Origin: a virus
Taxonomy: Duplodnaviria > Heunggongvirae > Uroviricota > Caudoviricetes
Length of the DNA: 23,484 nucleotides
Strand: one strand, 5' to 3'
IMG/VR virus record: IMGVR_UViG_2687453582_000002
Shown piece after piece: positions 9,501 through 12,500 of the stretch. A program made the position numbers. Every line of letters begins with the position of its first letter. Positions within the stretch are counted from its first letter, which is position 1.

Positions 9501-12500
9501 AAGGCGATGGCTAAACCAGCGCGAAGACGATGTAACCGTAAAAGAGAAGATTTAACTGTTAAAAGGATATTTGAGTTACTAAGTTTCGATAAATCTACCG
9601 GGGTATTTAGATGGAAAGTTCCCACTCAGGGAAGGATAGCATTAAATAGTGTTGCTGGAGCTTTTGATTCCAACGGTTATTCAATGATCATGATAGATGG
9701 GCGTAGATATAAAACTCACGTCTTAGTTTTTTACATAACTCATAATCGTTGGCCTGCTGGTCAAATTGACCACGTTAATGGAATTAGGACCGACAATAGG
9801 CCAGAAAATTTAAGAGAATGCCTGCCAATAGAAAATTCAAGAAATATAAGGATCCGAAAGAATAGCAAATCAGGTTGCAGAGGGGTTACTTGGCACAAAC
9901 GACAGAAAAAATGGAATGTTAGGCTAGGATTCCATGGCAAGAGTAAACACTTCGGATGCTTTGATGATCTGGAGTTAGCGGTACTAGTTGCTGAAGAAGC
10001 CCGAGATAAGTATTACGGTGATTTTTCCGGCAACGAAAGGAGCACTTATGCGAATCTATCGAAGGAAATGTAAATGTTGCAATGAATGGTTTATACCAAA
10101 ATATCAAAATCAATATTGGTGTAATGAGATTTGTGGAACCAAGATAGCACTCGAACGACGAAGTAAAGAACGCGAAAAAGCGGAAAAGGCAGAAAAGGCA
10201 GCAGAGAAGAAACGACGACGAGAGGAGCAGAAACAGAAAGATAAACTTAAGATTCAAAAACTCGCCTTAAAGCCCCGCAGTTACTGGATTAAACAAGCCC
10301 AACAAGCCGTACACGCCTTCATCAGAGAAAGAGACCGCGACTTACCATGTATCTCGTGCGGAACGCTCACGTCTGCTCAGTGGGATGCCGGACATTACCG
10401 GACAACTGCTGCGGCACCTCAACTCCGATTTGATGAACGCAATATTCACAAGCAATGCGTGGTGTGCAACCAGCACAAAAGCGGAAATCTCGTTCCGTAT
10501 CGCGTCGAACTGATTAGCCGCATCGGGCAGGAAGCAGTAGAGGAAATCGAATCAAACCATAACCGCTATCGCTGGACTGTCGAAGAGTGCAGGGCCATCA
10601 AGGCGGAGTATCAACAGAAACTTAAAAAACTGCGAAACAGCAGAAGTGAGGTTGCATGAATATCTACGAAAGAATTGATGGCAGCAAATACCGAAATATT
10701 TGGGTAGTTGGCGATCTGCACGGATGCTACACGAACCTGATGAAAAAACTGGAGACGATAGGATTCGACACCAAAAAAGACCTGCTTATCTCGGTGGGCG
10801 ATTTGGTTGATCGCGGTACAGAGAACGTAGAATGCCTGGAATTAATCACATTCCCCTGGTTCAGAGCTGTACGTGGAAACCATGAGCAAATGATGATTGA
10901 TGGCTTATCAGAGCGTGGAAACGTCAATCACTGGCTGCTTAATGGCGGTGGCTGGTTCTTTAATCTCGATTACGACAAAGAAATTCTGGCTAAAGCTCTT
11001 GCCCATAAAGCAGATGAACTTCCGTTAATCATCGAACTGGTGAGTAAAGGAAAAAAATATGTCATCTGCCACGCCGATTATCCTTGTGATAAATACGAGT
11101 TTGGAAAGCCAGTTGATCATCAGCAGGTAATCTGGAACCGCGAACGAATCAGCAACTCACAAGACGGGATCGTGAAAGAAATCAAAGGCGCGGACACGTT
11201 CATCTTTGGTCATACGCCAGCAGTGAAACCACTCAAATTTGCCAACCAGATGTATATCGATACTGGCGCAGTGTTCTGCGGAAACCTCACATTGATTCAG
11301 GTACAGGGAGAAGGCGCATGAGACTCGAAAGCGTAGCTAAATTTCATTCGCCAAAAAGCCCGATGATGAGCGACTCACCACGGGCCACGGCTTCTGACTC
11401 TCTTTCCGGTACTGATGTGATGGCTGCTATGGGGATGGCGCAATCACAAGCCGGATTCGGAATGGCTGTATTCTGTGGTAAGCACGAACTCAGCCAGAAC
11501 GACAAACAAAAGGCTATCAACTATCTGATGCAATTTGCACACAAGGTATCGGGGAAATACCGTGGCGTGGCAAAGCTTGAAGGAAATACTAAGGCAAAGG
11601 TACTGCAAGTGCTCGCAACATTCGCTTATGCGGATTATTGCCGTAGTGCCGCTACGCCGGGCGCAAGATGCAGAGATTGCCACGGTACAGGCCGTGCGGT
11701 TGATATAGCCAAAACAGAGCAGTGGGGGATAGTTGCTGAGAAAGAGTGCGGAAGATGTAAAGGCGTCGGTTATTCAAGAATGCCAGCAAGCGCCGCATAT
11801 CGCGCTGTGACGATGCTAATCCCAAACCTTACCCAACCCACCTGGTCACGCACTGTTAAGCCGCTGTATGACGCTCTGGTTGTGCAATGCCACAAGGAAG
11901 AGTCAATCGCAGACAACATTTTGAATGCGATCACACGTTAGCGCCATGATTGCCACGGATGGCAACATATTAACGGCATAATATTGACTTTTTGAATAAC
12001 TTTGGGGAAACTTGACACCAATAATGGGCGTTTTTTACATGTCATTGATGAGTCTCAATAACCTGCCGCCGAGTAGTTTTTATGCTCTGAATTGTATTTG
12101 TGTAGTAAACATGCTGACTGCAATGTAATAGAGTTTTTTTAGCCTGTAACCTCTTGACGGCATTGAATTGCTTTTGTTATGAGTTGTAAGCCAATGTTAT
12201 CATCTTGTATTGGGGTGGTTATGAAGGATGGTGCGCTGCTCAGGAGTTCTTCACTTTTTATTGCCTACATGGGATGCCTTGGATGGGGGAGTGCTTATTT
12301 CTATGGATGGGGTACTTCTTTTTACTACGGCTTCCCATGGTGGATTGTAGGTGCAGGTGTTGATGATGTTGCCAGAAGTTTATTTTTTGCAGTTATCGTC
12401 ATTGCTATATTTCTTATCGGTTGGGGTATTGGTGTTGTATTCTTTTTCGCAGTGAAAAGAAAACATTCTATGCAAGAGCTAAATGTATTTCGCCTTTATT

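Follow-up and report, generated by a model that had tools for sequence, protein, structure and literature searches.

A cassette inside ninG

IMG/VR record IMGVR_UViG_2687453582_000002, whose entire length of 23,484 nucleotides is referred to here as the window, is a decayed prophage of Escherichia coli O157:H7 in which the gene of an HNH-AP2 endonuclease sits on the start of ninG (rap). A preliminary description had read this arrangement as a free-standing homing endonuclease inserted at the 5' end of ninG with co-conversion of flanking sequence, and had suggested aligning the region with lambda and with loci that lack the HNH gene. This alignment maps the insertion point with sharp edges on both sides: a foreign cassette lies inside ninG, places the nuclease on the ninG start and supplies a substitute 5' end for ninG. 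The cassette boundaries in the following list were set by alignment and BLAST against lambda, 2B8 and 80 HNH-less loci from IMG/VR, a sample that is biased to lambda-like NinG.

9494-9535, + strand: relic of the native junction (3' end of ninF, start of ninG), identical to lambda and to 2B8 at 40 of 42 nt
9507-10073, + strand: open reading frame (ORF) of the HNH-AP2 endonuclease, ATG at 9507, TAA at 10071-10073, 188 aa, starting with MAKPARRRCNRKRED
9536-10131, + strand: inserted cassette, 596 nt
9708-9827, + strand: HNH_3 catalytic core, residues 68-107 of the nuclease (Pfam)
9873-10019, + strand: predicted AP2-like DNA-binding domain, residues 123-171 (sub-threshold Pfam match and fold search)
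10037-10050, + strand: new Shine-Dalgarno sequence and ATG of ninG, AAGGAG at 10037-10042 and ATG at 10048, inside the 3' end of the HNH ORF
10048-10659, + strand: chimeric ninG (rap) ORF, full-length, 203 aa
10048-10131, + strand: foreign replacement 5' end of ninG, 28 codons, 28.6% GC
10132-10659, + strand: lambda-type remainder of ninG, identical to 2B8 at 521 of 528 nt and to lambda at ~95%

On the left, the relic comprises the Shine-Dalgarno sequence GGAGGA (9493-9498), the ATG at 9507 and the first 9-10 codons of ninG (MAKPARRRC), and translation of the HNH gene now begins from this native signal. Because lambda NinG starts with MMAKPARRRCKNDECREWF, the N-terminus of the HNH protein is the native NinG N-terminus, which bears out the earlier suspicion that part of an ancestral ninG start had been captured. 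The match to lambda and 2B8 stops after TGTAA at 9535, and the cassette begins in ninG codon 11 (lambda numbering). The nuclease is fused in frame to the first 9-10 NinG residues, and the HNH ORF, as a chimera, joins ninG codons 1-10 to the nuclease body.

Besides this nuclease body, the cassette contains a new Shine-Dalgarno sequence, a new ATG placed 5 nt behind AAGGAG, and 28 foreign ninG codons. The two ORFs overlap by 26 nt (10048-10073), exactly as first described. Identity to lambda-type ninG returns at TGT GGA ACC (10132), where Cys29 corresponds to Cys33 of lambda. The ninG start had also been described as AT-rich and unlike lambda, which holds, but its breakpoint lies at codon 28/29 (10131/10132) and not at about codon 25, and the end coordinate of 10130 given for the feature falls one nucleotide short of it.

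Both junctions (9535/9536 and 10131/10132) are identical in every cassette locus compared and sharp against all HNH-less alleles. The 596 nt occupy the place of 64 nt of lambda-type ninG (L002 2043-2106), and in the HNH-less set (lambda, 2B8, 434 and the 80 IMG/VR loci) the ninF-ninG junction is uninterrupted. Among 82 HNH-less alleles, which were chosen for similarity to lambda NinG, the displaced 64-nt segment hardly varies. What separates these otherwise homologous genomes is a presence/absence polymorphism at one fixed site. Base composition follows the same borders, with 37.8% GC in the cassette and 28.6% in the new ninG 5' end, compared to 51.6% in the displaced lambda segment and 49.1% in the remaining ninG. 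A promoter and terminator scan of 8800-10800 gave no signal beyond the shuffled expectation.

The nuclease and the chimeric NinG

The HNH ORF matches HNH_3 in Pfam (E 4e-11, residues 68-107) and phrog_99 (HNH endonuclease) in PHROGs (E 7e-71), and D88, H89, N101 and N110, which make up the D-H...N...N motif, are invariant in the alignments of homologues. For AP2, Pfam reports a match of E 2e-4 and 22.1 bits, compared to a gathering score of 33.3, over residues 123-171, a phmmer search of the PDB sequences returned only a marginal match to the AP2 domain of WRI1 (E 0.19), and precomputed PF00847 matches exist for two nuclease homologues. An AlphaFold model built from a 12-sequence alignment (mean predicted local distance difference test score, pLDDT, 86) was compared to the PDB by Foldseek; the HNH homing endonuclease I-HmuI comes first (probability 0.98), followed by AP2 domains. 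Residues ~122-173 of the model superpose on the AP2 domains of AtERF1, WRI1 and TEM1 with a root mean square deviation (rmsd) of 1.0-1.5 Å and a probability of 0.99-1.00 (AtERF1, 1.3 Å over 51 columns, probability 1.00; WRI1, 1.5 Å). Because of the Pfam HNH_3 match, the I-HmuI-like fold and the AP2 superposition, the label HNH-AP2 is justified for the predicted nuclease. In its homologues, short and unconserved N-termini precede a conserved L-x-x-L-L-x-Y-D-x-x-T-G-x-F-x-W block, and therefore the nine fused NinG residues should do no harm. Of 60 loci, 59 have an intact ORF and one, L068, a frameshift; the variable sites of the ORF across these loci (11 synonymous and 11 non-synonymous, dN/dS ~0.27) suggest that it is under purifying selection.

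The chimeric ninG matches the Pfam NinG family with E 5e-81 over profile positions 5-192 of 193, and phrog_171 (NinG/Rap) in PHROGs. At its 5' end, where the first 28 codons agree with lambda in only 53 of 97 aligned nucleotide columns, the encoded N-terminus still keeps the Cys/Trp pattern R-R-x-C-K...C-x-E-W-F-x-P...N-Q-x-W-C...C-G-T-K; Cys8, Cys11, Cys25, Cys29 and the EWF and NQxW motifs are common to chimeric and lambda NinG. At Cys29 the foreign codons run in frame into the resident gene, and the gene downstream of the nuclease is thus still predicted to yield a complete NinG.

Some cassette loci carry a damaged ninG: in L009 (3806-5136) an IS2 element is inserted at the equivalent of window position 10095, L025 has another insertion at ~10311, and L013, L014 and L214 have internal deletions. 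Farther into the gene, a 9-nt in-frame indel at 10183-10191 (GAAAAGGCA), which adds EKA to the Lys/Glu-rich linker of NinG, segregates in HNH+ and HNH-less alleles alike; it is present in the window and in 2B8 and absent in lambda.

Searches for relatives of either part led back to the cassette. In the protein index no nuclease relative between 47 and 98% identity was found, the nearest one outside the cassette being at most 47% identical. The only phage records with the same gene are the Stx1 phages SH2026Stx1 and AU6Stx1, where it is annotated as 'HNH endonuclease'; the remaining phage relatives are below 60% identity, and the matches listed among ~3000 phage records lie at 25-40%. None of the nearest HNH relatives, P0004, P0005 and P0007, adjoins a ninG homologue, and a ninG-specialised endonuclease clade is unsupported by these inspected relatives. 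For the cassette-like NinG N-terminus, searches of the protein index with the first 40 NinG residues, of phages by tblastn, of the GTDB species genomes, and of IMG/VR and metagenomes with a back-translated EWFIPKYQ pattern each led either to the cassette itself or to nothing closer than ~60%. Phage HK022 has an HNH-AP2 paralogue of 37% identity at another site of its nin region, just after gene P (L004 2471-3082; HK022 32436-33047), where the annotation reads merely 'hypothetical protein'. This paralogue suggests that lambdoid nin regions have been invaded by the HNH-AP2 endonuclease family more than once.

Distribution and flanking contexts

The cassette is common in E. coli. It occurs in 538 of 5426 complete genomes (~10%), with 571 copies in total and not more than three per genome, and IMG/VR contains 58 further loci. 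Coverage is at least 80% in all 538 E. coli genomes and identity at least 99% in 536 of them. In 533 E. coli genomes the ninG 5' end is of the diverged type, with the HNH gene upstream in every case listed, and HNH-less E. coli ninG alleles match the window ninG only from 10132 onwards. An HNH gene upstream of an unaltered ninG, which would have spoken for a conserved independent gene, was not seen: neither the HNH body nor the diverged ninG 5' end occurs without the other in any of the 538 genomes.

This uniform element resides in variable surroundings, with four sequence contexts upstream and eight or more downstream overall. Upstream, the cassette loci fall into two classes. In class B (~20 loci), an intact ninF, present in at least three allelic forms, leads straight into the HNH start as it leads into ninG in lambda, and class B is therefore a plain insertion at a lambda-type ninF-ninG junction. 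Class A, which includes the window, shares leftward homology through an AT-rich spacer with a hexanucleotide repeat, and intact phages of this class have, beyond the spacer, a 590-aa minus-strand gene in place of ninF. As judged from the alignments, class A thus carries a second, independent replacement left of 9494. The 590-aa gene (L010 901-2673, L001 882-2654, L009 913-2685, minus strand) belongs to phrog_9230, a family of unknown function, and has no Pfam match; the junction between its block and the ninF relic corresponds to window position 9494. The continuations downstream of ninG, at least eight in number, include a direct transition to the NinI phosphatase and three NinH variants.

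Nucleotide diversity (pi) shows the same difference between cassette and surroundings. Inside the cassette pi is ~0.001-0.01, and over the first 50 nt to its right pi amounts to 0.0245 among HNH+ and 0.0219 among HNH-less loci, with a between-group divergence (dxy) of 0.0237. From these first 50 nt onwards, pi of HNH+ loci in the adjoining ninG is not below that of HNH-less loci and is about equal to dxy. Sites at which both alleles occur in HNH+ and HNH-less loci are found in the right flank at +9, +33, +66, +96 and +117 and as a 9-nt indel at +52 to +60, and in the left flank at -31, at -45 and -49 (both nearly fixed in HNH+ loci, with one exception) and at -85 to -91. One HNH+ locus, L059 (IMGVR_UViG_2541047907_000004), stands out when ~1.5 kb to each side of the cassette is considered: more than 211 nt left of the cassette it differs from lambda at one of 1289 nt, compared to 10 differences within the 211 nt adjoining the cassette and 13 within ~820 nt to its right. 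L059 looks like a lambda nin region that took up the cassette with a limited foreign flank, and is the locus that most clearly suggests recent acquisition together with a conversion tract.

The window itself adjoins ypjA/ehaD. It contains two tandem tyrosine recombinase genes (1-1206 and 1196-2521), IS66 tnpA/tnpB (16501-17246), the type III secretion effector gene espW (18846-19904, minus strand) and DUF1076 effector-like genes. A phage early region is missing from the 23,484 nt, and therefore the HNH-ninG-ninI-Q block is cut off from pR. The window copy of the cassette is intact and identical in many O157:H7 genomes, yet it is probably silent, not being expressed from pR, and would represent a vertically inherited fossil. 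In the window, the 590-aa class-A gene has been lost to insertion sequence (IS) elements: upstream of the HNH gene, an IS3-family element (orfA 7639-7965, orfB 7962-8852) lies inside an IS30 transposase remnant (8659-9159, minus strand), which in strain SS TX 754-1 is found without the extra IS3-family insertion. The AT-rich spacer contains a perfect tandem repeat, (TATTTC) x 12.8, at 9236-9312; in the manner of a variable-number tandem repeat, it varies in copy number by 6-nt steps across E. coli genomes and IMG/VR loci.

Probable homing and its alternatives

Taken together, we consider it likely that a free-standing, intron-less HNH-AP2 homing-endonuclease gene has been inserted inside ninG of a lambda-type nin region. 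The junctions and the population pattern support the homing-endonuclease insertion originally proposed, with the site refined to a position inside ninG, after codon 10. The intact ORF, the low diversity of the cassette and its ~10% prevalence suggest the recent spread of a single element whose nuclease function is still selected. That this spread occurred by cleavage, homing and break-induced gene conversion is what we infer from the protein family, from a single near-monomorphic element in many backgrounds, from the purifying selection and from the conversion-like tract of L059.

In such a cycle, a phage with the cassette and an HNH-less lambdoid phage or prophage would replicate in one cell, and the nuclease would nick or cut the conserved 64-nt ninG segment or a nearby sequence. 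The near-invariance of this displaced segment is as expected for a homing site. The cassette allele itself would be immune, because its counterpart of the replaced segment is only ~55% identical. The break might then be repaired by Red/RecA recombination on the cassette-bearing template, a process that would copy the cassette together with variable lengths of flanking DNA. Co-conversion, which had been invoked for the AT-rich ninG start, does not apply there, because this start has the same extent in every copy. It is rather an invariant and integral part of the cassette, and most likely foreign ninG sequence that was fixed at the first, illegitimate acquisition. Tracts of conversion type do appear farther out, for example in the ~211 nt left of the cassette in L059.

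Several points weigh against this homing interpretation. HNH-less lambda-type ninG alleles share O157:H7 chromosomes with the cassette, ninG is damaged in several HNH+ loci, and neither a donor lineage nor intermediate relatives emerged from the searches. Sampling of HNH-less alleles was biased to lambda-like NinG, and the replaced 64-nt segment is a guess at the target, given that free-standing endonucleases often cut far from their own gene (PMC2988022). Moreover, lambdoid recombination is so free that a passive insert could gain the same mosaic flanks.

The last point leads to the main rival, a passive mosaic module, which entered ninG once by an illegitimate event and, with an inactive or irrelevant nuclease, was spread by the ordinary Red/RecA shuffling of lambdoid genomes. 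The nin regions are indeed highly mosaic, with the many upstream and downstream contexts described above and pi values of up to 0.1-0.3 within a few hundred nt; linkage of the cassette to flanking single-nucleotide polymorphisms is gone by +9 to +33 nt, and susceptible-looking alleles persist in the same genomes. However, a nuclease without function fits poorly with an HNH ORF that is intact in all but one locus at the dN/dS given above, and passive shuffling fits poorly with a cassette that has reached its present prevalence with a diversity far below that of its immediate flanks. We therefore regard the passive module as unlikely, although it deserves more weight than any other alternative.

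Less probable still is a domesticated or weaponised nuclease that serves its own phage above all, for instance in cutting lambdoid phages, prophages or satellites that compete with it, with homing as a by-product. The purifying selection on the ORF would fit such a role as well, genomes of enterohaemorrhagic E. coli (EHEC) hold several ninG-bearing lambdoid prophages, and there are precedents in the marker exclusion caused by T-even homing endonucleases and in the related domains that take part in phage-satellite conflict (PMC2988022, PMC10448857). Yet the gene is also kept in a dead prophage remnant, and such cutting is mechanistically the same act as homing, which means that the data cannot separate the two.

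The reverse polarity, in which HNH gene and AT-rich ninG start are original and the lambda-type phages derive from them by deletion, has nothing but the co-occurrence of the two parts in its favour and is effectively refuted: the HNH ORF opens with the Shine-Dalgarno sequence, ATG and nine codons of ninG, GC content is discontinuous, the cassette is near-monomorphic compared to diverse HNH-less ninG and ninF alleles, and one deletion could not restore 64 nt of lambda-type sequence encoding the conserved Cys/Trp motif. A group I intron or intein carrying the endonuclease, as an insert within coding sequence that is in frame at its left end might suggest, is refuted, as an Rfam scan of 9100-10700 gave no family at E up to 1, the HNH ORF ends in its own stop codon (10071-10073), ninG restarts on its own Shine-Dalgarno sequence and ATG, and splicing that joined both lambda-type flanks would delete 22 conserved codons.

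The homing-endonuclease cassette favoured here has counterparts in well-described systems, and intron-less homing with co-conversion of flanks is established for T4 and the T-even phages (PMC2988022). Like the cassette, the genes of SegF, SegG and MobE lie outside any intron or intein, are present or absent at one fixed locus, and are accompanied by divergence of the adjacent sequence and by conversion of flanking markers, the latter being inferred in our case (PMC2988022). In contrast, these T-even enzymes are encoded at intergenic positions in virulent phages, most of them being GIY-YIG enzymes or members of other HNH subfamilies, whereas the cassette sits inside a gene of a temperate lambdoid phage, borrows its start codon and supplies a substitute 5' end. 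Closer in position are mobE in nrdA of Aeromonas phage Aeh1 and mobA in T4 gene 39/60, likewise HNH genes within a coding region whose host gene can still be expressed downstream (PMC2988022). In these cases, however, the split gene depends on both of its halves, which reassemble, while the cassette leaves only nine N-terminal residues behind and brings a complete replacement N-terminus, which makes NinG a single chimeric polypeptide.

A lambdoid precedent for the fusion itself is gene 31 of Salmonella phage epsilon34, a P22-like temperate phage, in which the N-terminus of a host gene, eaE, is fused in frame to an HNH homing endonuclease (PMC2629481). This gene differs in lying in the early left operon and in an HNH lineage related to enzymes of Lactobacillus phages, and no replacement 5' end of the host gene is described for it. 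Regarding domain architecture, an N-terminal HNH and a C-terminal AP2 domain define a recognised family of phage homing endonucleases, and the 'IPA-HNH' enzymes of ICP1 and other phages share with our nuclease the I-HmuI-like HNH core followed by AP2 (PMC10448857). The difference is that identity to these relatives does not exceed 47% and that no inspected one adjoins ninG. The literature searched contains no paper that links an HNH gene to ninG; the insertion within ninG is not described there, and the gene itself is already public as 'HNH endonuclease'.

Homing endonucleases are well studied in virulent phages such as T4, T5 and ICP1 and hardly in temperate lambdoid phages, a group in which lambda is routinely used for crosses, Red/Rap genetics and in vitro assays. 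With its exact junctions, its frequency in E. coli and especially in EHEC, and its location in the nin region of lambda itself, the cassette offers an experimentally convenient system. If it is active, double-strand breaks and gene conversion near Q-stx of Shiga-toxin phages would have a defined origin. A more far-reaching idea, which we put forward only as a long shot, is active homing among co-resident EHEC prophages, where induction would lead to breaks in HNH-less ninG 0.6-2.5 kb upstream of Q and stx and drive conversion or exchange of the nin-Q-stx late-regulatory region between Shiga-toxin phages. Neighbouring cargo may then be carried along, for example the class-A 590-aa gene that replaces ninF. 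If not active, the nuclease would be one more annotated HNH gene, with its origin now explained. In either case, the cassette illustrates how insertion into a coding sequence can be solved without an intron: the start of the host gene is taken for the nuclease, and a substitute 5' end is delivered in return.

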